Under the pieces are notes generated by a model, which was given only the letters and a program-made list of their open reading frames with translations, did no database searches and had not been told where the DNA came from. 64,000 nucleotides of DNA, taken from positions 31,124,001 to 31,188,000 of the forward strand of contig OX597816.1 of assembly GCA_951406725.2 (NCBI GenBank). Direction: 5' to 3'. The stretch is from Octopus vulgaris. Lineage: Eukaryota. Position numbers and translations under genes: made by a program. Positions 1 to 63,654 of this stretch are shown here, in pieces (position 1 is the stretch's first letter; each line of letters opens with the position of its first letter).

Positions 1-1325
1 CGTTTCACATTCTGCATCTTTTTCACATGACTTATCATAAATTATCACTAAATCATACCTCAAGACAAACTATGTCATTTCAAATGAGAACTTGAGAAGA
101 TATTTGATAATATACTATTGAAATAATTGTTCGAAAAATGGCGTGAGTGGTCATCGCTGAAGTATTCTTATGTTATGAAAATGTTGCATTAACCAAAACA
201 AAAAAAATATAGGATAGCGGTAAGAATAGCAATGATTTATTGGCACTATTCTAATTAGCCAGAGCGTATTTCACAAGTGATTGTCAGCTCAAAGCTTGAT
301 AGCCATCAATCCAGTTAATTGCTGAATACCTGACAATTGATACGTTCTACTATTTAGGCTTCTCGTTTCTAAAACAAATAGTCTATTACGAATGATTTGC
401 CTTCTGACAGGAAGGGAAACATGTCAACACACAGCTCTGAAAGCACAGATCTTTCACGCCCGTTTCGTCTTTTCCTCTACACACTCTCCAATGCTCTCAA
501 TATCTCTCTATCCTTCTCTCTCTCACTCTCTCTCTCTCTCTCTCTCTCTTGTTCTTTATCTCTCTATCTCTCTCGTTCTTTCATTCTCTTTCTCGCTCAG
601 CCATACACACACAAGCACAAAAAGAAGCACACAAACACGTGCACCCCAATACACATACAAACGCACACGCAAACATATTCGTACGTAGATACTATCTCAC
701 AGACATTTATGTGTGAATACTTATATGCATGAATGCATATCTAATGAATATATTATATATGCATATATGCTTATGTAATATATACACATACATATGTACA
801 TCATCTACATATAAAAGAGTATGGGATCGACTGTTTAAAAACAATATCACATCGTTTGACGTTTTGCATTATATGGCTTTGTTCCCGACACTCGTTACCA
901 TGTCAAAAATTATAATTAACAGAGTATCATGAGTCCTCTACTTTACAAACACTCAATTGAAATTTAAATGTTTCCTTATATGAAATACTGAATATTCAAT
1001 ATAAATTTAAAATACAAAATATTAAATATTAAAGTTAATTCTAAGTATATATTTTGTGGATTTTTAACGTTTATTTCAAAATTTCAAAATATACAATGTT
1101 ATTAATAATATTTAGGGTGTAAAAGATATGTGTATGCTATTATATGTATATGTACACAAACACACACGCACACACACACACATACATACACACACACACA
1201 TATAAGTAAGGATAACATCGATATTTTAATACAGGTCTTAGATGGCCAGCATGGAAATAAAAACTATATATATATATATATATGAAACAAATCTTTTTTC
1301 TTAAACTTTCGTAACACATACACAA

Positions 1326-1382
<57 letters not shown>

Positions 1383-1384
1383 TA

Positions 1385-2100
1385 CATATTTGTGTATGTG
1401 TTACGATAGTTTAAGAAAAATATTTGTTTCATATCTAGCGTGAACTACACATCTCTTCAGTTTCTCTAAGCATTAACCGTTCTCTGCAAAGAATGTTTGC
1501 TTCAAAACACGAGAACGCCGGTGATAGTTCAAGAAATAATCCTCTTTAAATGTATGGCGAGGCGAGTTGTCTTCCTTCACTTGATAGCTAGGTTTTCCAA
1601 TTTTGAAGTAAACATTTCCGAAAATGTGGACAACTCTCCACGGCTTCCATCCTGGAGTTATGGTAGCTTCCTGACTCATGTGAGTTCATGAGAATTATAA
1701 ATCTTTATGGTAAACACAATTTACACAGTCTTGATCCATTACGACAGGGTCCACAAATTTCCAATAACTTCCGCCTGATGTTAAAGGGCGTATGATCGTC
1801 CTTTAGTCGCTATACGTATGCTGCAATGGTTGTTGTGTTCTATTTTACCGGGTCCCTAAAAGATCTGTGATTGCTCAGGCAAATTAAAAATCTGTATTCA
1901 CAAGATCTGACACAAATTTTACTTTGTGTCCCTGTGATGGCATTGGTGTTATTGATATTTGTGCTGCTTCTGTTTGAGGCTATCTTTGCTTGGTACACTG
2001 TAGGCTCAGTATAACATCGGCCGTCAGAGGTCATTCATTCCTAATCCTGTCTGAACAAACTGCCCCTGTCCCTGGCTTAAGATTGCTAAGTAATTGATTC
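1385..2100 (-). mobile_element. Penelope-like element (Naiad-type) 3' remnant: decayed Cys-rich linker + GIY-YIG endonuclease + 3' pLTR with hammerhead motif
   Basis: Manual minus-strand translation through one frameshift and several stops gives NQLL..CSDRIRNE*PL/DGRCYTEPTVYQAKI..KICVRSCEYRF..NHRSFRDPVK*NTTTIAAYV*RLKD..FNIRRKLLEICGPCRNGSRLCKLCLP*RFII..YHNSRMEAVESCPHFRKCLLQNWKT*. This matches the CxCR..CPLxGxC / VYxA / H..SF / CxLCLxE / LNxRSE..CxH pattern of Naiad-type PLE endonucleases. The element ends at (TA)n. Confidence 0.85.
1414..1465 (-). ncRNA. Minimal type-I hammerhead ribozyme motif (degenerate stem III) in PLE pLTR
   Basis: Minus strand reads AGAAA-CTGAAGA-G-ATGTGTAG-TTCACG-CTAGATAT-GAAAC-AAAT-ATT-TTTCT. 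Stem I is AGAAA/TTTCT, the core is canonical CUGANGA, stem II has 7 of 8 pairs, followed by GAAAC. Position 16.2 is A instead of G. Confidence 0.7.
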
Positions 2101-2105
2101 GTAAT

Positions 2106-2374
2106 ATTGTGTTTAACCAGAAATATTTATAATTCGCATGAACTCACATAGGCCAGGAGGCTACCTTAAATCCAGGTCCGAAGCCTTGTGGAGTTGTTCA
2201 CATTTTCAGAAACTTCTTCTTAAAAACTGGAAAACCTAGCTATCAAGCGAAGAAAGACAGCTCGCCTGGCAACATTTTAAAAGAGGATTGTCTCTTGAAC
2301 TGTCGCCAGCGTTTTTGTGTTTGAAAACAAATATTCTTTGCAGAGAACGGTTACTCTTTAGAGAACCTGAAGAG
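2106..2374 (+). repeat. Inverted pLTR copy of the PLE (right arm of fold-back with ~1454-1722)
   Basis: Reverse complement of ~1454-1722 at roughly 80% identity by eye. Encodes the same C-terminus (..YLKSRSEALWSCSHFQKLLLKNWKT*) and ends in AGAAC-CTGAAGA-G, where a SINE interrupts it. Confidence 0.9.
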
Positions 2375-2498
2375 GACTTTGCCTTTCATCCTTTCGGGCT
2401 CGATAAATTAAGTATCAGTTACGCACTGGGGTCGATATAATCGACTTAGTCTGTTTGTCCTCTCTGTGTTTAGCCCCTTGTGGGTAGTAAAGAAATAG
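2375..2498 (+). mobile_element. 5'-truncated SINE (Deu/Nin-like domain family)
   Basis: gactttgcctttcatcctttcggg..cgataaattaagt..cagttacgcactggggtcgatataatcgac..tagccccttgtgggtagtaaagaaata; same family as 30746-31530. Confidence 0.85.
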
Positions 2499-3901
2499 AT
2501 ATGAACCTAATGGTATATGTATAAGTATATGGTATATGTATATGTATGTATATATATATAATAAGAAAATGCAGAAAACCTAAGATTGACAAAAACATCG
2601 ATTGGACAATATTCATAGCTTATTTTTAATGAAAGCATGACGTAACAAATAGGTGACATAACAAAAACGGTGTGGTTGTGCTATAATATTTTGTATATAT
2701 ATACATATTGTATAACAACACCGTTTTTTACCACTATTTTATGATTGATGATTATGAGCGAATAGAAGCAAATGCAAATTTTACATATGTTGATATTCAT
2801 GTGTGTGTGTGTGTGTATCAGAATGAATATCCGCTTATCTTCATTCTCGTAATATTTAGAAGTTCGTTCTGTATTTGGCTTGCTTATTGTAAATAAACAG
2901 CGTGTAAATGATGGATTTTGTGTAGTATGAGCCACGTGACGAAAGGTGATGTGGAAGGCACAAATATATCAATGAAGGCCATGCTCTCTGAAATATGATT
3001 TTAGAAAATCCTATTCTAATTTCTCCATAGAAATGTATAATTCAAGTATCAAGCATGAATTTCTTATGTTATTCGAGGTAGGGGCAGCGGGCTTTTTTAT
3101 TGATAAACTGTAAAAGAAGGATTTGTAATATATGTTATTCGTTTTCAAGATTGCAAGTATTAAATCGTAATACTTCAACGTTGAATGTCGAAAAGCGTTA
3201 AGTATTCATAATTCCTTAGAAGAAAATATAGAACTTGTAATATGAATGTGCATGAAGAAGTGTCATGGCAGATGGAAAATAAGGTTCCACTTTATGTTTG
3301 TATTGCCTGATACGTTTTATAACGATAAATATGACAGCATATAGAAGTAGATACAAGGATGAAGAAAAAAGACACAAGAAATACGAAAACAAATACTCAG
3401 TGTGAGCCCATTTAAATTGTAGCTCATATGATTTTTGTTTGCATTTTGTTTCAGGTGATAACAATTCAACCAAAATACAGCTCTTTATATATCAACTGAC
3501 GTATTCAATTGAATTGGTGGCATATCTTAAACACTATTGCTTAAAGTCATGTCAATTTTTGTGAAGAATGGAATGTCTTATTACGACGAAACTATTCTAG
3601 TTAAGAGTTTCTCATCCTACATTTATATGTATATAATATATTCACAGTAGAGTGGTATCACTTCTTTATCTATCTCAATAAACACACATGCGCACGTGCA
3701 CACGCACACATTCATTGCAATCCTACATCTATACTGTATGTTACTTTTTGCTGCGTAACTTGTTAAAATCATATATACCATCTTTTATTTGTATACTTGA
3801 ATTATATAATAGATCAAAATTTAATTGTGGATTTTAATGATCAATACACTATTAGAATCCTGAAGTCCGTCAGCACGCATTATCATTGCAACAGCAGACA
3901 G

Positions 3902-4082
3902 ATTTTCAAGTGATATTTTTTCCGCACATTACGTTCTAGATTCAATTTTGTTTTAAAGAAAATGAAATAAAATCATAATGAATTCTGCTTTACACAACTA
4001 TACCGCTTTGCATATATATCATTGACATTAGAATTTTCAAGTGATATTTTTTCCGCACATTACGTTCTAGATTCAAATTTTG
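3902..4082 (+). repeat. ~45 bp near-perfect direct repeat pair
   Basis: attttcaagtgatattttttccgcacattacgttctagattcaa occurs at ~3902 and ~4033. Confidence 0.9.
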
Positions 4083-4379
4083 CGATAGTCATTCCTCATT
4101 CCTTGATAAAATAAAATGCCTGTCAAGTTACTAAAGTTGCCAGTATCGACTAACGCACTTCCTTCAAAATTCCTAGCCTTGTGCCAAAATTTGAAACAAT
4201 TTACTAGATTCATCTAAAATTGTTAACCCCTTCAAACAAGTTTACAAATAGATTTACAAATAGAGAATTAGTTATTAAATAAATACATTTTTACTTAAAA
4301 GAATGTACAGCCGCATATGATATTGTTTTTATGTTCCTCTTCATTCTCATAGTTGATGTATATGTCCGATGATCCATCT

Positions 4380-6200
4380 TCCTGCTGAGCTACGATGAAG
4401 ATATTACAGATGTACTGCTGTGTTGGGCATTGTTTCGAAAATATTTTATGAGAAAAATTTTAAAGCTTATTCTCATCTAATTATGGCATAAAATGTTATG
4501 GCGGTTAATTTTGAACACCCATAGTTCGAACAAGGAAAGCTCTGTACATGAAATGTAGCTAATTGAAACAAGCTGTTTTTATGTTATTGTCAATTACGTT
4601 GTAACTTTAAAGAGAATTTTTAAAACAATTATATTTTGAACTTTATGTCGTACAAACAAACGAGGATTTTTATGGGTGCAACAACAAAGGCATGCAAAGG
4701 GCTAATACGTTTAACTACATTTATAGCTGATCCATGAAAGCTCGTTCCAAAATTTCTCCTTTATAAGAACTAACTTATTTTAGGTGAATTCGAGTAAACG
4801 TCAGGTCTATCATATTCATTTTTTGATATATTCATATCTAGGCTTACATGGCGTATGGCATGTCTTCAGTATTTTCGGACTAAAATATTCATTTCCCTCT
4901 CCAGTTCCAACTCTAGCTGATGCTCCTATAAATGTTTCACTCAGAATTAGCAACGACAAGGGCATGTAAATAGGCATTCGTGTAAACATAATTAGAACAG
5001 CATTTATGGCTCTTCATGATGCTATAATATTAATATGAATAAGACGCATGCAAAAGGGATTTATGAAGTATTTTCCGTATATACGTTTCAGGATAGGGTG
5101 TCTTTGAAATTACAATTAGAAAAGTAAAAAAAAAAAAAAATTCATTTATTCTGTTCCTAAATATATGTATTAATATATCAACACTTTCTGTTTTGATAGA
5201 ACAGAAAACACTCTTCAGTTATGCTGGAAGTAATGAATAATGCCTCTAATGAACTTATATACTAACACGTTTTTAGTGAATAAGAATTCACTTATATCAC
5301 ATTTCATTATATAGTTGTCTAGAATTTATATAGAACCGTATCGTATATATTAGAACATTGCCTTATCCAAAATATATTATAATGGCTATATTAGATGCAA
5401 CATTTAAAGTATATTTTAACAATATTTGAAATATCTCCCATTTAACTGCTGTAGGAGTTTTAAAACAATAAGAACATTCTAACGTCAATGATATATATGC
5501 AAAGCTGTATAGTTGCGTAAGGCAGAATTCATTAATATGATTATATTTCAATTTCTTTAAAACAAAATTTGGAATTACTTCTCTCCATCGTTGATACTTC
5601 AGCTTATACTTCTCTAATACAAAGCAAAAGTTTATTCACTGCAATTTATAAGTAGCAGTCTAACCATACATATTTAATTGTTAGTTAAAATTTTGCAGAT
5701 TGTTATATGAGCTCTCCGTTTAAAATGACATACCTTGAGATGTAAAATATTTAGATCAGTGTCGTAATGATAATTACATTCGAAATCTTCTCGATGGAAG
5801 AATGTAAATCATATGTGAATGGTATATATATATGCAATGTTGAATATTTGTTTAAAACAGTCTACTTTAATAAGCTTGCTTTAATTTTCTTTAGAACAAA
5901 ATTTGGAGATATTTCTGTCAATCTTTAAGGCTCAATTAATATTTCTCTGATGAGAAGCAAAATCTTCATTCACTTAGAAACTATAGTTAACAGAATATGT
6001 TACAAACTAGATTCGCGTTCACATGTTCTCAAAGCAAGAAAATATATATTAGTACATGGTTCTAAACAGGAATGTAAATGGAGAATATGTCTCCTCGCCT
6101 ACCTATGTTAATGGTTCATCTACTAAACGAACATACCATCACGCCAAGTTGTTTGACTTCATAGAAGCCCATTACATCATGGAAACAATTTGAGATAAGA
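4380..6200 (+). pseudogene. Possible heavily decayed leucine-rich-repeat (TLR-like) coding remnant
   Basis: Stop-ridden fragments resemble LRR units: FMGATTKACKGLIRLTTF (~4670), LEVMNNASNELIY (~5225), ILEHCLIQNIL*WLY*MQHLKYI (~5350), and an LRR-CT-like FAFTCSQ..STWF (~6010). Diverged internal repeats at ~5550 and ~5885. No intact ORF. Confidence 0.25.
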
Positions 6201-11650: not shown

Positions 11651-11877
<227 letters not shown>

Positions 11878-11885
11878 TATATATA

Positions 11886-12922
11886 CAACCCAACATGCTG
11901 TAGTCGAAGGAGTCAAATCCAGCCCAGCCAAAGTCAGCAGTGGTGTCCCACAAGGCACTGTGTTAGGCCCACTTCTCTTCATCATCTACATAAATGATAT
12001 TACTGACACCATCAAACACAGTAACATCAGAACCTTCGCTGATGATTCCAAGCTCCAGAAGGTCATCAATGGCGTGGATGACCGAATAAACCTTCAGTCA
12101 GACCTACTGGCTGTTGTCCAATGGGCGGAAAAGAATTACATGTTGCTAAATGAAAACAAATTCGAACTGATCCACTTTGGAAGGGAGGACGCTCTGAAAC
12201 TCCCATACTCTCTTCCTTCTGGAGAAATTCTCATGGCATCCAACAACATCAGAGACCTGGGAGTAACAGTGGACAACAACATAAGCTGGGCTACACATAT
12301 AAGCAGCAAAGTTGACATGGCCCGCAGAATGTGTTCCTGGATTCTCAGAACCTTCCAGTCGAGAGATTCCCATGCTATTATCCTTCTCTTCTCCACTTTT
12401 GCCCGACCCCACCTTGAATACTGCTGTCCACTGTGGTCTCCCAACACAAAACAAAATATTATGAGAATTGAAGCTCCCCAAAGGTCAATCACAAAAAATA
12501 TAGATGGCATGTCAGACCTTGACTACTGGGGTAGACTAGAGAAGCTGAAATTGTATTCACTCCAACGACGCCGTGAACGCTACATTATCTGTATGATGTG
12601 GAAAATATTCCATCAGCACTGTCCGAATGATGCTGGCATCACCTTCAAAATGCATCCAAGGCTTGGACCACGTGCCATCCGTCCACAACAAAAATCTAAA
12701 TCACATCACATAACGACAATACGGCACAACTATTTCACCTCAATTGGACCCGTTCTCTTCAACATTACACCAGGACACGTCAAAAAAGAAACTGACCACA
12801 CAAAATTCAAGAAGTCTTTGGACAAATTCCTTCAAACAGTACCGGACAAACCACCCACACCCGGATATGTCTCCGCAAACAATAACTCTCTGCTCGAATG
12901 GGCCTTGGTGCCCAAATCCTGA
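11886..12922 (+). CDS. Reverse transcriptase fragment (N-truncated, uninterrupted) of CR1-like LINE
   Basis: RT motifs PQG and FADD in an open frame. The ORF-track start at 11855 comes from the flanking repeat and is not a genuine start. Confidence 0.85.
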
Positions 12923-13061: not shown

Positions 13062-13891
13062 CTCTAGATTACGCAAAACTGAAAATAACAGTGACTTCTT
13101 TATATTTACATAAAATTATCTTAAACTACTAAAGAGTAAACTTATACATTAAAATCACTATTGGCTTCAACCACAGCATTCCAGACGCTTTCAGAATAGC
13201 CTACAACTGTTGTGAACGGTCCCCTCGTTTAAGTTGGTGAATTCTGCCTCAGATAATCTTTTGTGTTACAAAGAGTTTTGTTCGTCTCTCGCTCAAGTGC
13301 GCCCCACACATAATAATCAAGGAGGTTACAGTCAGTGGAGTGAGATGACCAGATTTTAGGGGTGATGTGGTCACAGAAATTGTTTGACAGCCATGACTGG
13401 GTTCCCTCCCTTGTGTAGCATTGTTCAGAGTCCTGTTGCCAAATATAGAGCCATCCGGCAGCCATCCTCTTCACCCAGGGCAGCACTATCTCCTTCAGAC
13501 ATTTGACGTAGGCCTCCCTATTAAGCTTAAGGCTGTTTGGAGAGATGAATGGAGACATAACGCCGCCGTCACTAGTGATCACTCAAACACCATGATGTTG
13601 ACTGGATGTTAAATTTTTTATCAATCTCAGTATATGTCCTCAGATTGCACTGCCCCCGGATTGACACACAAACGCTCTGAATTGTTCGTATTGGAGATTC
13701 AGGCGCGAATGCCAAGCAGTACAGCATGTCATTTCCAAAATTTTGGCAGAGTGCCTCAAGACACAGTGCTGTTTTTCTCTCAGACGGTGTGCAACTGGCC
13801 TTACTATACTATGTATTCGACAAAATAAAAAGAAATGAGCATGCCCGAAATAAAAAATATAAAATGGCGAAAATTTACCCATCACGCCCTG
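13060..13891 (-). mobile_element. Internally deleted Tc1/mariner DD37D (maT-like) transposon remnant
   Basis: ORF 13229-13582 reads WQQDS..WSSHSTDCNLLDYYVWG, with 37 residues between the last two catalytic Asp. A terminal cagggcgtgatgggtaaattttcgccatt lies next to TA. Confidence 0.85.
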
Positions 13892-30745: not shown

Positions 30746-31530
30746 AAGGCGGCAAGCTGGCAGAAACGTTAGCACGCCGGGCGAAATGCTTAGCAGTATT
30801 TTGTCTGCCGCTACGTTCTGAGTTCAAATTCCGCCAAGGTCGACTTTGCCTTTCATCATTTAGGGGTCGATAAATTAAGTACCACTTATACACTGGGGTC
30901 GATATAATCGACTTAATCCGTTTGTCTGTCCTTGTTTGTCCCCTCTATGTTCAGCATTTTGTGGGTAGTAAAGAAATAGGTATTTCGTATGCCACTACGT
31001 TCTGAGGTCAAATGTCGCCGAGGTCGACTTTGCCTTTCATCCTTTCGGGGTCGATTAAATAAGTACCAGTTTTGCAGTGGGATCGATATAATCGAATTAA
31101 TCTGTGTGTCTGTCCTTGTTTGTCCTCTCTATTTTTAGCCCTTTGTAGGTAGTAAAGAAATAGGTATTTCGTCTGCTATTATATTCTGAGTTCAAATTCC
31201 ACCTAGGTCGACTTTGTCTTTCATCCTTCGCGGTCGATTAAATAATTACCAGTTACGCACTAGGGTCGATATATTCGACTTAATCCGTTTGTCTTTCTTT
31301 GTTTGTCCCCTCTGTTTGTAGTCCCTTGTAGGCAGTAAAAAATAAGAAGCGTCAGCACGCCGGGCGAAATGCTTAGCGATATTTCGTCTGTCTTTACGTT
31401 TTGAGTTCAAATTCCGCCAAGGTCAACTTTGCCTTTCAACCTTTCGGGGTCGATAAATTAAATACTAGTTATTTATTGAGGTTGATCTAATCGACTGGCC
31501 CCTTCCCCACCAAAACATTTCGGGCTTAGT
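30746..31530 (+). mobile_element. Head-to-tail array of four tRNA-derived SINE units (~184 bp period)
   Basis: Units start at ~30746, 30979, 31163 and 31346. Each has gagttcaaattccgcc (B-box-like) plus gtcgactttgcctttcatcctttcggggtcgat (Deu/Nin-like domain). Confidence 0.92.
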
Positions 31531-31919
31531 AGATTCTTTACCGAAAGGAAGAAATGCTTACAAACCAAACAATATTGCGAACATTACGTTCTCTGTTCAA
31601 ATCCCTTCGAAGCCATTTTCTCTTCTTAATCTCTTGGTGTTACTGGAGGTAAATTCTCAGCCAGGTTCTGATTTCGATGTAATCGAGTGACCCACATCAC
31701 GCAAAATTTTGGCCTTGTCCTAAAAATCTGAGCCACTGATGTGTTGAGCTGACAGAATCGATAGCACATCACAGATTAGAGTTCAGCTGATTTCAATGCA
31801 AAATCAGGCGAAGTCACTTTTACATGTTACGTTCTGTTCTCGGTGAAATAAAGACCAGCTAAGATCTGGCGTCGATATAATCGATGTCATATGACTATAA
31901 TAGGAAGGAATATTAGACT

Positions 31920-31950
<31 letters not shown>

Positions 31951-31971
31951 CATCCTCATCATCATCACTAT

Positions 31972-32002
<31 letters not shown>

Positions 32003-32039
32003 AGCAGCAACAGTAGCAGCAGCAACGGTATTATTATCA

Positions 32040-32230
32040 GGAAGACGGCTGAGATGATTTAGCGCCGTTTCGTACGTGATTACGTTCTGAGTTCAAATTT
32101 CGCCGACGTCGATTTGGCATTTCATCTTTTCAGAGTCGATAATTTAAATACGACTTGCATACTGGTGTCAATGTAGTCGAATCAACACCTCCCACAAAAT
32201 TTCAGGCCTTGTGCCTTCAGTAGAAGGAAT
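32040..32230 (+). mobile_element. Diverged SINE of the same family
   Basis: acgttctgagttcaaatttcgccgacgtcgatttggcatttcatcttttcagagtcgata..aaaatttcaggccttgtgcct. Confidence 0.75.
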
Positions 32231-33041: not shown

Positions 33042-36000
33042 TTACATTGATAGGGTTTTTCTAAGGATGTGGGCATTACTTGTTAGCACAATCTTTTGGA
33101 TTTCCTTGAGACATGGTTTTCCAGGGATATTGTCTAGGTGTTTCTGACATCCCTTTTTTATCATACCTAGGGCACCTACAATAACAGGAACAGTTTTTGT
33201 TTTAAGATTCCACATCCTCTGTATTTCGATTTCCAGGTCCTTATATTTACTAAGTTTGTCAAATTCCTTGACAGATACATTTTTATCAGTGGGGACGCTT
33301 ACTTCTATTAGTCTGCAGGTATTTTCTTCCCTGTCTTTAACAATTATGTCTGGTCGATTAGCCTTGATCATTCTGTCCGTGTTGACTGGAAAATCCCAGA
33401 GGATGGTGACATCTTTACCTTCAACAACTGACTGAGGATGGTGTTCATACCAGTTAGCAGGAGTGTCGGATTTGTAGTGTTTACATGTCTTCCAATGTAT
33501 ATACTGTCCTACCCTATCGTGGCGATTTTTGTATTCGTTTGGTGTCAGCACAGGACATCCCGAAACGAGATGGTCTATCGTTTCGTCAAATGTGTCGCAG
33601 AATCTGCATTTAGGGTCAGTACCGTTTCGGAGAACGTTAGCCTGGTAATTTCTGGTAAACAAGCTTTGATCTTGTGCTGCCATTATGAAACCTTCAGTCT
33701 CTGCTTTCAATCCAGAGCTCTTCAGCCACTGATGGGTTGTTGCTTGGTCTACATCAGCATTTTGGCTTCGGAGAATATATTGTCCATGCAGGGGCTTCTG
33801 GCTCCACCGCCTCTCAATTTGATTCTGCCCGTTCTTTTTTGCAGTCTGCTTGATTCGCTTTGCTTGCTTGGTAGCAGTGGTTTCCAGCTCTTCATCTGAT
33901 TCAAGGTTAATGTCTAGTTCCCTTTCGAACTTATAAGCTTCCTTGACAATAGAATGCAGCTCTTTGTTGCTTTCGTGTTCGCGCACAAGTCGCAGCATCC
34001 AGTCCTTTGTACTAGATAGGTACCTGTTCATTCCTACAGTAGAGGTCTTATAGCACAGCTCTAATTGCATCATTCCTCTCCCCCCGCTGCTTCTAGGTAG
34101 GTACAAGCGGTCTACATCTGCCTTAGGGTGGTGCATGCTCCTGGATGTCAGTAATTTTCTTGTCTTCCTGTCTAAGCGTTGGAGTTCCGTAAGGTTCCAG
34201 TTAATGATATTAAAACTGTACTGGACTACTGGAAGTGCCAGGGTGTTAATGGCCTCAATGCAATTTTTGGAGTTGAGTTCAGTCTTCAGTACAAGCCTTA
34301 TTCTCCTATAGTATTCCTTTCTTATTTTTTCCTTCATAGTAGCATGATGTATACCATCTCCTTCGTTGATTCCTAGGTATTTGTAACTTTCCTGTGGGTC
34401 AAGTTCCTTGATGGTAGTGTCAATATCTAATTTAACAGAAGCTGTTTGCCTGAGCTTGCCTCTTACAAAAGTTGCTTTAGCACACTTATCAAGGCCAAAA
34501 TCCATTCCGATATCATTGCTAAACTCTTTAACAGTTGTTAGCAGCCCTTCTAGCTCTTGGTCATTCCTGGCAAACAGCTTTAGGTCGTCCATATAGAAAA
34601 GATGGTTTATTAATTTACTAAAAACTTTGTACCCATATCTAGTACTATCCAATTCGTTTGAGAGTGGGATCAGTGCCATGCAAAAAAGTAATGGAGAGAG
34701 GGAGTCACCTTGAAAGATGCCTCGTTTGATGTTGATGCTGTTGGACTGGCTCATCCCATTACTATGGCTTAGAAAGAGACGTGTGTTCCACATGGTCATG
34801 CTATTCTCTAAGAATTTTGAGACGACAGGAGAGATCTTGTATATCTCAAGGGCCTTGAGTATCCATTTATGTGGGACACTGTCATACGCTTTTCTGTAGT
34901 CTATCCATGCCATACTCAGGTTTTTGTTTTTGCTCCGGCAATTCTCTACAATCATTCTGTTTATGAGCAATTGGTCTTTTCACCCATAAGAGTTTCTTTT
35001 ACAACCTTTTTGAGCTTGTGGAAGGATAGAATTTTGTTCAAGGAAAGCGTACATTCTCTCCGTTATTATGGATGTGAGGATTTTGTAGGTGGTGTTGAGA
35101 CATGTTATTGGCCGGTAATTCTTTGGGTTTTTTTGTGTCTTCGGTTTTAGGTAATAGGTAGGTGGTTCCTTCAGTCAGCCAAGCAGGTATTTGCTCTGGG
35201 TTCTGAATGACATCAGACAGAGATGCAGTGAGATGTTCGTGTACCTCTGTCAAACAATTCAGCCAGAAGTTAGGGATCCGATCCAGTCCTGGGGTTTTCC
35301 ATTTATGAGCCTTCCTAAGGACACACCTTAGCTCCTCTATTCCTATTGCTTCCCATTTCTGTTCTTCAAGTTCATCCAGTCTCTCTTTCTCACGTTCTAT
35401 CCAGTCAGCCTCAGCATTAAACTCTTTTTCGTTGCTCCATACCTTCTTCCAGAACTCCTCCACTTCCTCAATCTTAGGTGGATCTTCTATGTGTATTTTA
35501 TTTTTGCCAATTTCCCTATAAAATTTCTTTGCATCTGTCTTAAAAAATTTATTTTGTCGATAAAATTTGTTTCTTTTGTCATACCTTCTAAGCCGTTGAG
35601 CTTTCAACTGTATCCGTTGTTTCAACAGTTCCTTAGTTGCAGGGAGGTTTATGAGATCTTTGATTTTATATTTTTGCTTGATTTTTCTAGCTTTTCTCGG
35701 CTTAATATTCACTCCTCTAGCAAGCTCATCGAGAACTGAAACATCCGCCCGCAGAGATTCAATCTCTTTTTGTATCGCTACTTTCCACTTAGGAGGTTCA
35801 TTGACATGCCTGGCCTTTTTCTTTGTCATCTTAATACCTAGTTGGGTAGTTACTACTTTAGCAGTGGAATAAATGAGATTATTTAAGGTTGTCAAATCAT
35901 TCCCCTTATTTCTTAAGATCTGTCCTAGGGCAACGTTATATGTCATGATTGTGTTGTTATTTCTTGTGCCATTTGAAAACTTTGGTAGTGGTTCTCTATT

Positions 36001-36747
36001 AACCATGTCAGTGAGCTCAATCTTGCCGAGTTCTCTCATAATGTCCACTTTTGCTTCCATAATCTTTTCTCTATTATTCACCTCAAATTCTATGTCATAT
36101 CTATTTTGGTTTTCTTGAGGAAGGTCTACGTTCTCCTCTTTTTTCAAATCTCTCGTCTTCGCTATTCTTTGTTTAACTTCCCCATTGGGAAGTTGATTTG
36201 CCGCTTGTACACTGGCTTCTGTGCTACTGTTACCTATTTCGTCTACATTGTTGCTGTTTTCTTTTGGTCTACCATGAGCTATCAGTGTCCTAATTTTGTC
36301 AATTTCAGCGTCAGTTAGTCTTTTGTTTTTAATTATATCTCTGCGTACATTACTTAATTTATTTGCGTCTATATATCTACGTACGTCATTGCCTACTGAA
36401 TTTCTCCATGAGATGTATGTTTGTACACTGAGGTTATTATTTGGGTTTAGTTGGGCTGTATAAAAAGCTTTCAACACATCTCTATAGTCCTCTCTGGTCC
36501 ATTTTATACGTTTTGCTTTAGGTAGTGTTTTTGGTGGTGTCACTACAAGTCCAGAGTTAGAAGTATTCTGGTTCTGGTCACCTGGTAGATCGTCTTTTTG
36601 AGAGTTTGTTCCAGCAGCAAACTTTTCGACCCCAGTCTGGTTCCCTACTGGGTAACGCGGTCCTTGTTGTCCCGGGCGATGACCGATCCGGCATGATTTT
36701 TGGCTTGTTTTCATTAAATGATTGACGGCGACATCAGAGGGGTCCAT
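33042..36747 (-). pseudogene. RT/RLE polyprotein of R4/Dong element, disrupted by one +1 frameshift (A7 run, 35128-35134) and one in-frame TGA (34980-34982)
   Basis: KWTREDY (N-terminal Myb-like), WKTPGLDRIPNFWL, (shifted) NYRPITCLNTTYKILT, AWIDYRKAYDSVPH, GIFQGDSLSPLLF, YMDD, CRFC..ETIDHLVSGC, RHD, RPD..IEVSVP..KLSKY. Confidence 0.93.
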
Positions 36748-37089
36748 TTTTTCAGAGTCAACTTTTTGACAAGACGCCGCCTCTGTGACGGTGTCGTTAG
36801 AAGAAGGAGTGTTTGTACAGGGTCAATTTTTTGACAAGACACCGCTTCTGAATTCTCCGAATTAATATATTGTTCATATCGAACTCGCATAAGACTTACA
36901 GATCGAAATTCGCCTCTATTTATTTTGGTAGTCATGTTTCCGGGCATAACTGTTCAATGACTTTCTAAATTCAGTGACCAATTTGCTCTTTTTTGCGTTT
37001 GTTCGTGAAAAATCGCTTTGTTTTTGTTTTGTTTTCGTCCGCGTAACGTGGTTTTTCTTTCTGTGTGTACGTGTGAGCGCTATTTATGC

Positions 37090-51499: not shown

Positions 51500-51600
51500 T
51501 AAAGTGTCGTTGAAGTGGTCACAGACGTGTGACAAGAGATTTCCGGGCAATGGACATACGTTAGAATAAACAGTTATAAAAGAGTGAAGAACGAATATAT
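51500..51600 (+). repeat. Interspersed repeat shared with ~59720-59815
   Basis: tgtcgttgaagtggt..gac(a/g)agagatttccgg(g/a)caatg..aagaacgaatatat at both loci. Confidence 0.75.
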
Positions 51601-51633
51601 TGGCAAAAAATGACCATTTCGAAATACAATTGT

Positions 51634-51956
<323 letters not shown>

Positions 51957-53870: not shown

Positions 53871-54109
<239 letters not shown>

Positions 54110-54114
<5 letters not shown>

Positions 54115-56002
54115 CAACTTATCAATAGCCTGGATAGACTATAAAAAGGCTTTTTATAGCCTACCACATAGCTGGATTAGGAAATGCCTTGAAATGTATA
54201 AGATAGCACCAACTCTGCGAAACTTCTTGACTGTAAGTATGAGATCATGGAGAACCACAGTAACTCTGAACAGTGACAGTGAATCCCTAAATGCTGGTGA
54301 TGTAAAAATTTCGTGTGGCATTTTCCAGGGTGACTCACTGTCACCACTCCTCTTTTGTTTATCCTTAATACCTCTCTAAAAGCTGCTCAATGACGCGCAG
54401 TACGGGTATAAAATGTTTGATAAAAATATAAATCATCTCGTTTACATGGATGATTTAAAGCTTTTTGCAAAAAATGATCAACAACTCAAGGGCTTACTAG
54501 CGATAGTCAAACAATTCAGTGACGACATCAGAATGCAATTCGGCCTTGATAAATGTGCAAAGGCTACCTTTATCAAAGGAAAAATGACAGAAACATCTAA
54601 CGTTAACCTTGACCAACAGAATGTCATAAAAGAACTAGACCCAGCGGAGAGCTACAAGTACCTAGGGGTAATTGAAGGGAACGGAATAAGGCATTCAGAG
54701 ATGAAGGAAAGGATCAGGAGAGAATGCTATCGAAGAGTGAGAGCAATACTCAAGACAGAGCTGAATGCAAGAAACAGGATCGAAGCAATCAATGCATTAG
54801 CTATACCAGTCGTGACTTACAGTTTCAATATTGTTAACTGGTCAATTACTGAAATATGTCAGCTCGACAGAAAAATAAGGAAACTGTTAACAATGCATAG
54901 AATGCACCACCCTAAGGCAGATACAGAACGACTCTATCTGCCAAGAAAAGAGGGAGGCCGTAGTCTTTTGCAACTGGCAATAACAATGAAGATTGCTACA
55001 ATTGGCCTAGACACCTACATGAAAAACTCTGAGGACTGGATGTTAAAACTTGTCTCAAAACATGAAAACAAGAAAGCATCATACTCAGTCACAAAACAGG
55101 CAAAGGAATATCTAAGTGAATTCCGAATACAACCAATTTCGGAATTAGAGATAGATATACAAGAAACAAGCACAGAAAAAGCTAGGCGCATGAAAACCCG
55201 TGCCAAAACTGCGGCCTTAGATATTCTGAATAATAAATGGCAAGAAAAACCTCTCTATGGTAAATACCCAAAGAGAGCGAATAATGCAGATATCGACAAA
55301 GCCCTGACCCATCAATGGCTAATGGCCTCTGGCTTAAAATCTGAAACAGAAGGGTTTATCATAGCAGCTCAAGATCAATGCCTACCAACAAGAAACTACC
55401 AGGCCAACATATTAAAGATCAGAAGCAGTCCAACATGTCGTGTATGCAAGCTACAAAATGAAACCATTGACCATGTGGTCTCCAAGTGCAGTCTTCTAGC
55501 GCCTACAGAGTATCTCAACAGGCACGATAGAGCTGCACAATATATTCACTGGGTAATCTGTAAAAACCTGGATTTGCCCCATGAAAAAAACTGGTGGGAA
55601 CACAAACCACCCCCAGTGCTTGAAAATGACCACATCTCACTCCTCTGGAACTTCACCATTCAAACTGACAGGAAGATAGATGCAAATAGGTCACACATCA
55701 TATTGAAAGACTTCAAACAAAGAACCTGCCCCCTCATTGATATGACTGTCCCAATCGATATAAACGTATCTGTCAAGACCTACCAAAAACTGAGCAAATA
55801 TAAAGATCTTGAAATAGAAATCAGCAAAATGTGGAAGCTGAAGACTAAAACAATACCTGTTGTCATAGGTGCCCTGGGAATGATAGCAAAAGGGGCTGAT
55901 AGCTACCTAACTCAGATACCAGGAAACCCAAAAATGGCAGAAGTTCAAAAGATAGTGCTCATGGGAACTGCTCATATCCTACGCAAAATACTCTCTATGT
56001 AA
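54110..56002 (+). pseudogene. Truncated RT/RLE coding region; premature stop and the RLE PD motif changed to SH
   Basis: NRSHII here versus NRPDII in the 33 kb copy; AFYS versus AYDS. Confidence 0.88.
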
Positions 56003-59933: not shown

Positions 59934-59971
59934 AAACAATGTAAAATTGAAAGCTACTGCTCGAGTGAAAA

Positions 59972-60380
59972 TATATACGAAAGAGGATTTTAAAATGCAG
60001 AGGTCTTTATTGACTTCACAGGTTTCACATTTAAAAAAAAAAAGATTTTTAAAACTAAAATGTAAAGCTTTGTGTCGCCTTTGTTGTGTTAAAACATGGT
60101 TATTATAGGTGTATTAAAATACAGTGATACGGTCTTTCACAATGAAGAGAAAACCTTGAGAAACTGAATCTTTGACAATAAGAAAACATTCAGAGGGGCT
60201 TATTGTTTAAACAGTTTACATAAAAGTGTTCAAAATAGGTAGTAAAATAAAAAAAATATATTTTCAACACAACACAGGCTACACAAAGCTCTACATTTTA
60301 CATGTGAAAATAACATGTGAAACCGGTCAGGTCAATAAACATCTTTAAAATACCTCTGGATTTTCAAACCCTCTTTTCTG

Positions 60381-60385: not shown

Positions 60386-60461
<76 letters not shown>

Positions 60462-60499
60462 GAAAGAAGGTTTGAAAATGCAATTTAAAAGATGTTTAT

Positions 60500-60544
60500 T
60501 TACTTAACCGGTTTCACTCTTTGGAAAAAGATTGTCAAAAGTAA
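60500..60544 (-). ncRNA. Hammerhead-like motif, U3-A8 core variant (left-arm copy)
   Basis: Exact reverse complement of 62704-62748. Confidence 0.55.
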
Positions 60545-62703
60545 CATAGAATATTATGAATTCAAAAAAGTTTTTTACATAATTGCCACATTGAATGTTA
60601 TGAATTCAAAAAAGTTTTTTTTACATAATTGCCACATTACATGTATATATATAGTCTTTGGTAACAGGGACATGTTAAGGGCATAAAGAAGTTCAACAGT
60701 GTGATGAGAATATTTGAAAGAATGGGCAGAAAAGAATAAAACAAATATATTATTGGAAGTTTGGTTGCGTTAATTATTGGTTGTTGCAAATTGTCACATT
60801 ACATGTATATATACAGTCTTTGGTAAAAAGGACATAGTACAACAGTATGGTGAGAATATTTGAAAAATTGGCGGAAAAAATTATTAAAATGAATATATTA
60901 TACATCTCAGGGTCAGTATAGAATATTATGAATTCAAGGCGAGTTTGTTTACTGATCTGTCCGTTTTAGCAGAAATGTTGAATTGAGAAAAATGTACCCG
61001 TTTTTTTCTGTTTATGGCTTTCCTTCAAGCATCAATGATTTTGGGGTTAGCATGAGGTGAGTATGTGTGTCTCTCTGCGTGTGCGTGAATAGATGTGTCT
61101 GTGCGCCTGTAGTATTTGGTCAGATGGCGTCTGTTTGTCAAGTGTGTGTGGTTGTCATGGTGTTGTGTGTGCGTGTCTGTGCGTGTGCGCGTGTGCCTGC
61201 GTGTGTACGCATGCATGAGTGTGGATGGCATTTGACATGGGCTGCGTGTGTATATATGTGCCTGTATGGAGGTGAGGCTGGTGTGAGTGTGCGTGCCCCT
61301 GTGTGCGTGCACACACACGTATACAAGCATCTGCGTGTGTGTGGGGGCTGTTTTTGAATGGTTTCAGGGTGGCGAAAATAGATGTGTGTTGTTTAAAGAA
61401 TTTTTTGGGGTAGGATGGTGTGTGTATATATGCGTGTCCGCCCGTGCGCGCCCGTGCGCGTCTACGCGTGTGTGCGGGCCATACATACATACTAAAACAC
61501 ATACACACACACACATCACACACACACACACAACGCACACACATATAATATACACACACAACACACAAAAATAACATGTATTTATATATAATACACACAC
61601 ATATATAACACACACACACAACACACGCACACATACATACATAATATAAATATAACACAAATACACCTAGCACATATATACATACAATACACATACACAG
61701 CATGTGTATAATACACATAAACAATATATACATACAATATACTTACACAATACATACATATAATATATATATATATAGACAATGCATATACATATATACA
61801 TATATACATATAAATAGTGTTTACATACACATACATAAATATACCACATATACACACAATATACATACATACAATGTATACATATACACGTACGCATACA
61901 TATAACATATATATATACACATAACATACACATACACATATACACATGATGTACACATACATATACAATACACATACATACAATATACATATACACAATG
62001 CACATAATGCACATCTATATACACATATATATATATATTCACACATATACACATACACACATATATATATAATGCACACACAAACACAAAATACATACAT
62101 ATAGCGTACACACACATATATATCTACATACCACACACACACACACAAACAATGTACTCATATATACACATATACACATATATACACACACACAACACAC
62201 ACATATATACATATATATAAAAAACATATACACATATAAATACATACACACACACAATGCACACACACACACACGCACACACACACACAACGCACACACA
62301 CACACACCACACACACACACACACACACATTGACCCTGAGATGTATAATATATTCATTTTAATAATTTTTTCTGCCAATTTTTCAAATATTCTCACCATA
62401 CTGTTGTACTATGTCCTCTTTATCAAAGACTGTATATATACATGTAATGTGACAATTTGCAACAACCAATAATTAACGCAACCAAACTTCCAATAATATA
62501 TTTTTTTTATTCTTTTCTGCCCATTCTTTCAAATATTCTCATCACACTGTTGAACTTCTTTATGCTCTTAACATGTCCCTGTTACCAAAGACTATATATA
62601 TACATGTAATGTGGCAATTATGTAAAAAAAACTTTTTTGAATTCATAACATTCAATGTGGCAATTATGTAAAAAACTTTTTTGAATTCATAATATTCTAT
62701 ATG

Positions 62704-62748
62704 TTACTTTTGACAATCTTTTTCCAAAGAGTGAAACCGGTTAAGTAA
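62704..62748 (+). ncRNA. Hammerhead-like motif, U3-A8 core variant (right-arm copy)
   Basis: TTACTT-TTGACAA-TCTTT-TTCC-AAAGA-GT-GAAA-CCGGTT-AAGTAA. Stem I is 6 bp, stem II is 5 bp, stem III is the palindrome ACCGGT and the triplet is GUU. There is an extra GT before GAAA. Confidence 0.55.
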
Positions 62749-62834
62749 ATAAACATCTTTTAAATTGCATTTTCAAACCTTCTTTCGTATGTAATTCCAC
62801 TCGTGCGATACCCCACAACTCAACTTTATATATA

Positions 62835-63654
62835 TATGTTTAAAATGAGCCAAACAGTATTTACCATCCATAATAATTACAACATTCTAATACAGTGAAG
62901 AACGTATCAGCACGCTTTGGGAGTATCGGTGTCATCGTTGCTCTCATCTATGAAACAAAATATTTAATAAGTATGTATACGCATACAGATACACATAAAA
63001 AGAAAATGCGCATACTCACAAACATACACATATACACATATACACACATACTCACAAATATATAAATATTTATATGTTATATATACCGGAGTAAACACAT
63101 AAATGTGAAACAAGGTGGAAAAAGAGTACTCAAATACCAGTGGTAGAGTAATATGCTTTGTATAAAGCAGCAGAAAATTCAACAACACCTGTTACTCTGA
63201 GGTTCCCATTGCCGTTCATCGGACAGTTTTTGCTAGAAAAACTGTTTTTGTTAGCAAAAACTGTCCAACGAACGGCAACGGGAAACTTAGAGTAACAGGT
63301 GTTGTTGAATTTTCTGCTGCTTTAAATAAAGCATATTACTCTACCACTGGTATTTGAGTACTCTTTTTTCCACCTTGTTTCACATTTATGTGTTTACTCC
63401 GGTATATATAATATATAAATATTTATATATTTGTGAGTGTGTGTGTATATGTGTATATGTGTATGTTTGTGAGTATGCGCATTTTCTTTATGTGTATCTG
63501 TATGCGTATACATACTTATTAAATATTTTGTTTCATAGATGAGAGCAACGACGACACCGATATTCCCAAAGCGTGCTGATACGTTCTTCACTGTATTAGA
63601 ATGTTGTAATTATTATGGATGGTAAATACTGTTTGGCTCGTCATTTGAAACATA
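62835..63654. repeat. ~820 bp near-perfect palindrome centred at ~63243
   Basis: Arms of ~405 bp pair almost to the apex (aaaaac-t-gttttt), with outer ends gagccaaacagtatttaccatcc / ggatggtaaatactgtttggctc. Confidence 0.98.
63189..63298. ncRNA. Divergent pair of hammerhead-like motifs at the palindrome apex (63189-63226 minus; 63261-63298 plus)
   Basis: Minus: CTGT-CCGATGA-ACGGCAATGG-GAAC-CTCAGA-GTA-ACAG. Plus: CTGT-CCAACGA-ACGGCAACGG-GAAAC-TTAGA-GTA-ACAG. Stem I is CTGT/ACAG, and the two-arm consensus approximates CYGANGA..GAAAC..GUA. Confidence 0.45.

Follow-up and report, generated by a model that had tools for sequence, protein, structure and literature searches.

A decayed 3' fragment of a Hydra-clade PLE beside an inverted copy of its own end in Octopus vulgaris

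Near the start of a 64,000-nt stretch of Octopus vulgaris DNA (contig OX597816.1, positions 31,124,001 to 31,188,000; hereafter the window) lies the remnant of a GIY-YIG endonuclease gene, part of which recurs beside it in inverted orientation. This raises the question of which PLE clade the remnant derives from, how its two arms came to stand head-to-head, and whether it accounts for the other fold-backs of the window. A sequence-only reading had placed the locus (1385..2374) in the Naiad/Chlamys group. We find an ordinary decayed 3' fragment of a published family, head-to-head with an inverted and shorter copy of that same 3' end. The locus is wider than that interval, with its left edge at 1280 and its right edge at 2514 (Table 1). 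On the minus strand the main copy runs in the order endonuclease, stop, 3' UTR, damaged hammerhead, tail and (TA)n. Nothing at the locus is expected to function today.

Table 1. Coordinates of the features at the locus (window positions; consensus positions refer to Hydra-1_Obim and rest on hand comparison with the published supplement)
Feature	Position	Strand	Description
Third 51-nt copy	1280..1330	+	3' half of hammerhead and tail, tail-to-tail across (TA)n
(TA)n tract at tail end	1326..1389	.	TA-tract scan
PLE 'tail'	1385..1418	-	Length 36 nt in the consensus; lies 3' of the predicted cleavage site
Main copy	1385..2111	-	5'-truncated, Hydra-1_Obim-like, consensus ~1775-2507 of 2507; no reverse transcriptase left
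Type I hammerhead ribozyme motif	1413..1466	-	Corresponds to the Hydra-1_oBim entry in supplement File S2
Dead C-terminal GIY-YIG endonuclease (P0001)	1588..2022	-	144 aa, 3 internal stops
CxCX5C linker remnant	2025..2057	-	Reads C-S-D-R-I-R-N-E-stop-P-L
Head-to-head junction	2100..2112	.	Inside imperfect inverted microhomology of ~10 nt
Inverted arm	2101..2374	+	Last 44 endonuclease codons, 3' UTR, 5' half of hammerhead
Dispersed host-repeat fragment	2375..2498	+	Replaces ~15 nt of hammerhead stem II; 3-nt TAG overlap at 3' junction
Resumed tip of inverted arm	2496..2514	+	3' half of hammerhead; no tail
Degenerate (TA)n, opposite end of unit	2514..2560	.	TA-tract scan

The endonuclease remnant and its family

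No stop-to-stop ORF of at least 100 aa is present at the locus, in agreement with the earlier description of a decayed endonuclease that an ORF track misses. The endonuclease motifs fall in one minus-strand frame (2022 to 1591) containing VYQA (1998), NHRSF (1872), CKLCL (1725), NSRME (1659), CPH (1632) and LL, interrupted by stops at 1842, 1812 and 1707 and terminated by TAG at 1590. The motifs listed previously are found here with the exception of CPLxGxC, whose first cysteine is a TGA (2033) and which is further broken by a 1-nt deletion at ~2025. In terms of the CxCX5C linker the same lesions represent loss of the third Cys and a frame shift, in addition to replacement of the second Cys by Asp. 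Selenocysteine at TGA 2033 was ruled out, given that the consensus has TGC at this position and the frame also contains TAG and TAA stops. At the YIG position P0001, the conceptual translation, reads C-V-R (1914-1906). The loss of the Tyr and Gly of this motif, together with a conserved Arg and a conserved Glu of the consensus, implies that the endonuclease is dead.

A phmmer search with P0001 against 1.84 billion representatives gave 464 matches at E <=0.001, the best at 1e-18. The predicted model of P0001 (mean pLDDT 84.4) most closely resembles the I-TevI catalytic domain (Z 7.6, rmsd 2.7, 87 aligned), followed by T4 EndoII (Z 6.5), 9u75 (5.1) and the UvrC GIY-YIG domain (4.7), values that at Z <8 are suggestive and not decisive by themselves. 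Foldseek with the same model gave nothing at E <=0.001 (I-TevI ranks 30th, E 3.4), and Pfam returned no family for P0001 at E up to 10 and nothing informative for eight relatives. P0159 displays a weak Pfam GIY-YIG match (E 0.009, below the cut-off). A PDB sequence search with alignment A2 yielded one unrelated match (E 0.28), and a word-indexed search of P0001 against longer proteins, with 18 candidates, yielded none.

The family was identified at the DNA level. The supplement of PMC8557442 (584,176 characters) contains a 20-mer of the window exactly once, within the consensus of Hydra-1_Obim from Octopus bimaculoides. The minus strand from 2111 to 1385 corresponds to the final ~730 nt of this consensus as printed in File S7, with ~87 substitutions and a few indels, i.e. 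~88% nucleotide identity by hand alignment and not by program output. Similarity extends over the whole remnant and both sequences end at the same 3' terminus. P0001 shares 109/144 residues with the published peptide by hand count, and an Asn-rich insert between VYQA and the YIG position, specific to this family, also speaks for Hydra-1_Obim. Furthermore, the hammerhead row Hydra-1_oBim of File S2 is almost letter-for-letter equal to window 1485-1395. We regard assignment to Hydra-1_Obim, and hence to the Hydra clade, as virtually certain.

The locus shares with Hydra-1_Obim, by hand comparison, the endonuclease, hammerhead, tail, 3' end and (TA)n target. It differs in lacking the first ~1775 nt, including all of the reverse transcriptase, in its stops and frameshift, and in having an inverted pLTR-type arm, the supplement entry for the family stating 'no pLTR'. 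The previous reconstruction of YLNSRSE from the two arms, each preserving residues lost in the other, is correct for six of the seven residues, as the published family translates to YLNSRTE.

Hammerhead, tail and clade assignment

The TAG at 1590 is followed by ~120 nt of UTR, then CUGAAGA (1460-1454), GAAAC (1430-1426), a short tail and (TA)n. The sequence-only reading had called this a canonical CUGAAGA..GAAAC hammerhead. The motifs, core, stem I and stem II are indeed kept; 'canonical' does not stand, since stem III contains a C-A mismatch and Rfam gave no match. The main hammerhead ranks first in a relaxed scan of the window with a score of 18.5, compared to a maximum of 18.0 across 40 shuffled windows, and fails a strict descriptor scan. 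No hammerhead was matched by Rfam on 1385-2560 at E up to 10, nor window-wide among the best 150 of 206 matches. The tail overlaps the 3' strand of stem I. The third copy differs from the main tail by two mismatches and one indel and, by hand comparison with the published consensus, shares the consensus departures of the main copy. The sequence TAGATATGAA also occurs at 4840 and 56436 (minus), where the alignment goes no further; these sites were taken as chance or as another family.

The clade criteria were taken from the passages of Craig et al. 2021 (PMC8557442) and its supplement that describe each group. There, the Hydra clade is characterised by a C-terminal GIY-YIG endonuclease without CCHH, a CxCX5C linker, CxxC and CxH motifs flanking the conserved E and N, canonical hammerheads and (TA)n targets. 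The endonuclease of both Naiad and Chlamys is N-terminal, and almost all members are without canonical hammerheads. Naiads have CX2-5CxxC and CCHH motifs with canonical hammerheads absent, and Chlamys elements, from green algae, spike mosses and slime moulds, lack the linker and CCHH. In the reverse transcriptase, which the locus lacks, the published marks are RWK and DKT for Hydra and, for Naiad, DKA together with a CxC domain and an insertion in the fingers domain.

All six testable Hydra features are present. The endonuclease is C-terminal; P0001 has no CCHH; the CxCX5C spacing is intact, with the first Cys present and the other two mutated at positions where the published consensus has Cys; CKLC (1725-1714) and CPH (1632-1624) represent CxxC and CxH. 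A decayed hammerhead is found near the 3' end, with its core and stems I-II in the main copy and a consensus-like 3' half in the inverted arm, and TA tracts (1326-1389 and 2514-2560) flank the unit. In the published descriptions the same set of C-terminal GIY-YIG, CxCX5C, CxxC/CxH, hammerhead and (TA)n is shared by Penelope-13_HM and Hydra-2_Amil, and the supplement lists Penelope-13_HM as having, at the 5' end, an inverted copy that is 5'-truncated.

In contrast, none of the four testable Naiad features is found. The endonuclease is followed by TAG 1590, UTR, hammerhead and tail and is therefore not N-terminal, a decayed CxCX5C occupies the place of CX2-5CxxC, P0001 has no cysteine pair between GIY and YIG, and the motif at 1466-1413 matches a published canonical hammerhead. 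Chlamys fails likewise on the C-terminal endonuclease, the linker remnant and the DNA match to an octopus family. The Naiad/Chlamys reading is not without attractions: the GIY-YIG endonuclease, inverted 5' copies and tail are common to these groups, Naiads share the (TA)n preference and occur in octopuses, and some have partial hammerhead cores according to the published account. However, a stop, UTR and hammerhead come directly after the endonuclease here, the cysteine-rich N-terminal endonuclease of the octopus Naiad proteins, with its CX2-5CxxC and GIY-YIG cysteine pair, has no counterpart at the locus, and canonical hammerheads are described as absent from Naiads and most Chlamys. The domain order and the nucleotide match to Hydra-1_Obim refute this reading, to which we attach practically no probability. 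The order endonuclease, 3' UTR, hammerhead given in the sequence-only reading itself already excludes Naiad/Chlamys, because their endonuclease is N-terminal and almost all lack hammerheads. The motif set that had been called typical of that group is the Hydra-clade set, and the peptide groups outside Naiad, an outcome named at the outset as contrary to the proposal. The wider claims of PLE origin, a GIY-YIG endonuclease, a hammerhead-bearing 3' end and a (TA)n target are borne out.

Neptune, Nematis and Penelope/Poseidon resemble the locus in having a C-terminal endonuclease, a hammerhead in the pLTR and inverted pLTRs. They differ in the CCHH cysteines between GIY and YIG, which the locus lacks when set against the supplement alignment.

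The relatives of P0001 display the same organisation. A search profile built from P0001 plus 52 matches (out of 150 listed) gave 79 proteins of at least 563 residues, termed full-length relatives. In 78 of these the endonuclease lies within 40 aa of the protein end, the exception being a 1715-aa fusion model. YxDD is found upstream of the endonuclease in 76/79 and downstream in none, DKT and CxCx5C are each present in 73/79, and RW[KR] in 50/79. Two cysteines in the GIY..YIG span were seen in 0/75 full-length relatives with a findable span. Among the short matches, CX2-5CxxC is present in 0/48 that cover the linker and the GIY..YIG cysteine pair in 1/56 with a findable span. A 35-row endonuclease tree, built without named clade references, places P0001 with four short matches (100/99), three of them long-branched, a grouping that does not bear on clade. 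In tblastn searches of the window with 78 full-length relatives (fusion model excluded), the locus alone was matched, by 56 of the queries and in the endonuclease part only, hence no Hydra reverse transcriptase is left in the window.

The head-to-head arm and its origin

A ~270-bp inverted pLTR-type copy at the 5' breakpoint, as previously proposed, is evident from alignment of 1453-1724 with 2101-2374 (274 columns, 82.1% identity, 267 bits); dinucleotide shuffling of 1400-2500, repeated 100 times, gave inverted matches of at most 37.4 bits. The arms differ at 48 positions in a 262-nt ungapped core, and the 82% identity is spread evenly, each bin of 42-44 containing 33-38 matches. Over 39 codons, arm-to-arm pN is 0.21 and pS 0.11. 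With pN not below pS, the arms show no coding constraint, as in neutral decay.

If transcribed, 1385-2374 is predicted to form a long hairpin (-430 kcal/mol, z = -30.5 compared to 20 shuffles), which might suggest that the host retained the fold-back as functional double-stranded RNA, either as an editing substrate or as a small-RNA source. Such folding is common to any inverted repeat, however, and the arms have drifted evenly to 82%, making retention for this purpose very improbable.

The inverted arm breaks off after CUGAAGAG at the 2375-2498 fragment, which we take to be a SINE-like repeat. Seven more matches to this repeat are present in the window at E <0.001 (e.g. 30842, 31026 and 31210) and extend past both ends of the fragment. 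At least six copies are clustered at 30842-32180, the first three ~184 nt apart. Beyond the fragment the arm resumes, and by hand comparison 17/19 bases of 2496-2514 equal consensus 2452-2470, the first 10/10 also equalling the main copy. The last matching base of the arm corresponds to consensus 2470, within one base of the published cleavage site (2471). The 36-nt tail is present on the main-copy end and absent from the inverted-arm end. No host DNA or (TA)n separates the arms at the junction (2100-2112). By eye, published consensus 1774-1784 resembles the reverse complement of 2166-2175, with 6/7 first bases matching and then TTA after a 1-nt gap.

The two arms share ~10 substitutions and two indels relative to the published consensus (hand count), suggesting a similar source for both. 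These shared departures also point to a source that is perhaps a sister subfamily, or Hydra-1_Obim in another octopus species. Private changes number ~15 in the main copy and ~32 in the inverted arm (hand count; binomial p = 0.019), a total that agrees with the 48 arm-to-arm differences. A calibration quoted for O. vulgaris in PMC13282606 equates a distance of 0.09 with ~25 million years. On this rough basis an age of tens of millions of years is likely for the insertion.

Our preferred account, to which we give about even odds, is that a single old (TA)n insertion involved priming on either side of the cut and that the two resulting cDNAs were united at a short microhomology. It is favoured because inverted 5'-truncated copies and a one-sided tail of 30-40 bp are described PLE features (PMC8557442) and because nicking and extension of both strands have been shown for a purified PLE protein (Frangieh et al. 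2024, PMC11167929). In the latter study, reverse transcription begins at two sites with the tail between them. The element's protein would nick both strands of the palindromic (TA)n. The first cDNA would then start at the tail end and halt after ~730 nt, and the second would start ~36 nt upstream of that point, at the predicted ribozyme cut or immediately beside it, halting after ~300 nt. The 3' ends of the two cDNAs could anneal via ~10 imperfectly complementary bases, with host repair closing the gaps. Three stops and a frameshift would have accumulated in the endonuclease during later decay. The repeat fragment in one hammerhead was likely introduced by a repair event, and an inverted duplicate of 51 nt of the tail likely stems from a template switch within (TA)n. 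The latter is placed later, as a local duplication, because the third copy has the stem III damage in common with the main copy and this damage is absent from the inverted arm.

Several observations count against dual priming in a single event: the microhomology, identified by eye, is imperfect; no target-site duplication is visible within (TA)n; in the Anolis element (PMC11167929) the ribozyme cut is neither of the start sites; and the arms have diverged unequally. The unequal divergence is not predicted by one event followed by equal decay unless the templates already differed, and it fits two insertions equally well. Two independent insertions of different ages, in opposite orientation at neighbouring TA tracts and fused by a microhomology-mediated deletion, hence stay viable, although we consider them unlikely. 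Neighbouring insertions are plausible given the (TA)n preference of Hydra-1_Obim noted in the supplement of PMC8557442, and microhomology is also expected from a deletion. This scenario requires two insertions plus a deletion, it leaves the ~10 substitutions common to both arms to be accommodated, and it sits poorly with head-to-head inverted 5' copies being a recurrent PLE architecture in the published account.

The same asymmetry weakens a third possibility, in which a single cDNA folded back at the microhomology and copied its own start, so that the arms were identical at birth. The geometry is exact: a cDNA end at consensus ~1775 complementary to consensus ~2170 would produce the arms as seen, with a loop of ~390 nt. 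Fold-back predicts equal decay, where ~15 and ~32 private changes are observed, and a tail at both ends, where it is observed at one. We rate it as somewhat less probable again than two insertions.

Within the preferred account of two cDNAs, the missing tail permits a more speculative and, to us, doubtful extension, namely that Hydra elements draw on two different RNA 3' ends within a single insertion, one bearing the full tail and the other cleaved by the hammerhead. If so, the PLE hammerhead directly sets insertion ends, unlike in the Anolis Poseidon element, for which PMC11167929 reports that neither start site is the ribozyme cut and that cleavage is unneeded in vitro. Across the genome, tail-less ends of Hydra copies would then be expected to cluster at the ribozyme cut. 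PMC8557442 calls the function of PLE hammerheads unclear. The tail-less end at the predicted cut is a lead and not proof, coming as it does from a single locus with a T run and a TA tract next to it. A literature search on Penelope inverted copies, microhomology and template switching returned a general review only, and the junction mechanism may be published.

By itself the locus matters little, being a single dead member of a curated family whose architecture is familiar from earlier descriptions of PLEs. Its contribution is to document an inverted pLTR-type arm in a family that the supplement enters as 'no pLTR', and to replace the Naiad label by Hydra.

Other fold-backs and mobile-element remnants in the window

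The locus had also been taken to tie the other fold-backs of the window to a PLE origin. Searches of the window with 1400-2110 by blastn and nhmmer gave nothing outside the locus below E 0.1, and the other fold-backs were accordingly rejected as copies of the Hydra-1_Obim-like element. The link holds by analogy only: no significant sequence match connects them to the locus, though three have hammerhead-like motifs of their own. In the relaxed scan the locus is followed by the 60461/62331 arms (17.5 each), 5947 (17) and the 63086-63402 hairpin (16 and 15.5). Four sites score at least 17 where 0.375 are expected per shuffled window, an enrichment somewhat flattered by the scoring having been devised after the sites were seen; scores of 16 and below are within chance. 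A PLE origin of these fold-backs, from other families, is plausible and does not follow from the Hydra-1_Obim-like locus. The 11038/11684 inverted repeat consists of (TA)n only.

The segments 60461-60915 and 62331-62787 form a 457-nt inverted repeat (98.5% identical) across a (CA)/(TA)-rich spacer. Each arm contains a hammerhead-like motif with a decayed core, at 60538 (minus) and 62710 (plus), and related pieces are found at 59959-60094 and 60262-60376. The two arms likely represent inverted pLTRs of a different PLE family and of younger age. A head-to-head hairpin at 63086-63402 (93%) is nested in 62835-62976 / 63510-63654. It contains two minimal hammerhead-like motifs, one on the minus strand at 63222 and one on the plus strand at 63265, which resemble by eye the stems of Hydra-2_aMil as published; their scores of 15.5-16 are by themselves within chance. 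An Rfam MIR2670 match to 63086-63402 lies below the cut-off and likely reflects the hairpin only. Inverted and direct repeats at 3902-4080, 5472-5569 and 5826-6000 are found beside short TA runs. Near these repeats (3944/5472/5826) the plus strand carries a hammerhead-like motif at 5947, and the minus strand a weaker one at 5218. The 3902-6000 repeats are likely remnants of a further PLE family.

The window also contains remnants of other mobile elements. Short frames at 13229-13582 (minus) and 51561-51730 (minus) are, by eye, presumably Tc1/mariner transposase fragments; Pfam assigned no family to the former. At 33042-36822 (minus), adjacent ORFs of 645 and 594 aa lie in different frames, the first matching RVT_1 (E 6e-22) and zf-RVT; together they likely make up a non-LTR retrotransposon that is still fairly intact. 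The remnant of a similar non-LTR reverse transcriptase at 53993-56002 (plus), with a 540-aa ORF (RVT_1, E 2.7e-07), starts in a trinucleotide repeat. A LINE reverse transcriptase fragment of 362 aa lies at 11655-12922 (RVT_1, E 4.5e-10), and its 5' ~45 nt occur twice, at ~11650 and ~11838, with a long (TA)n between them.
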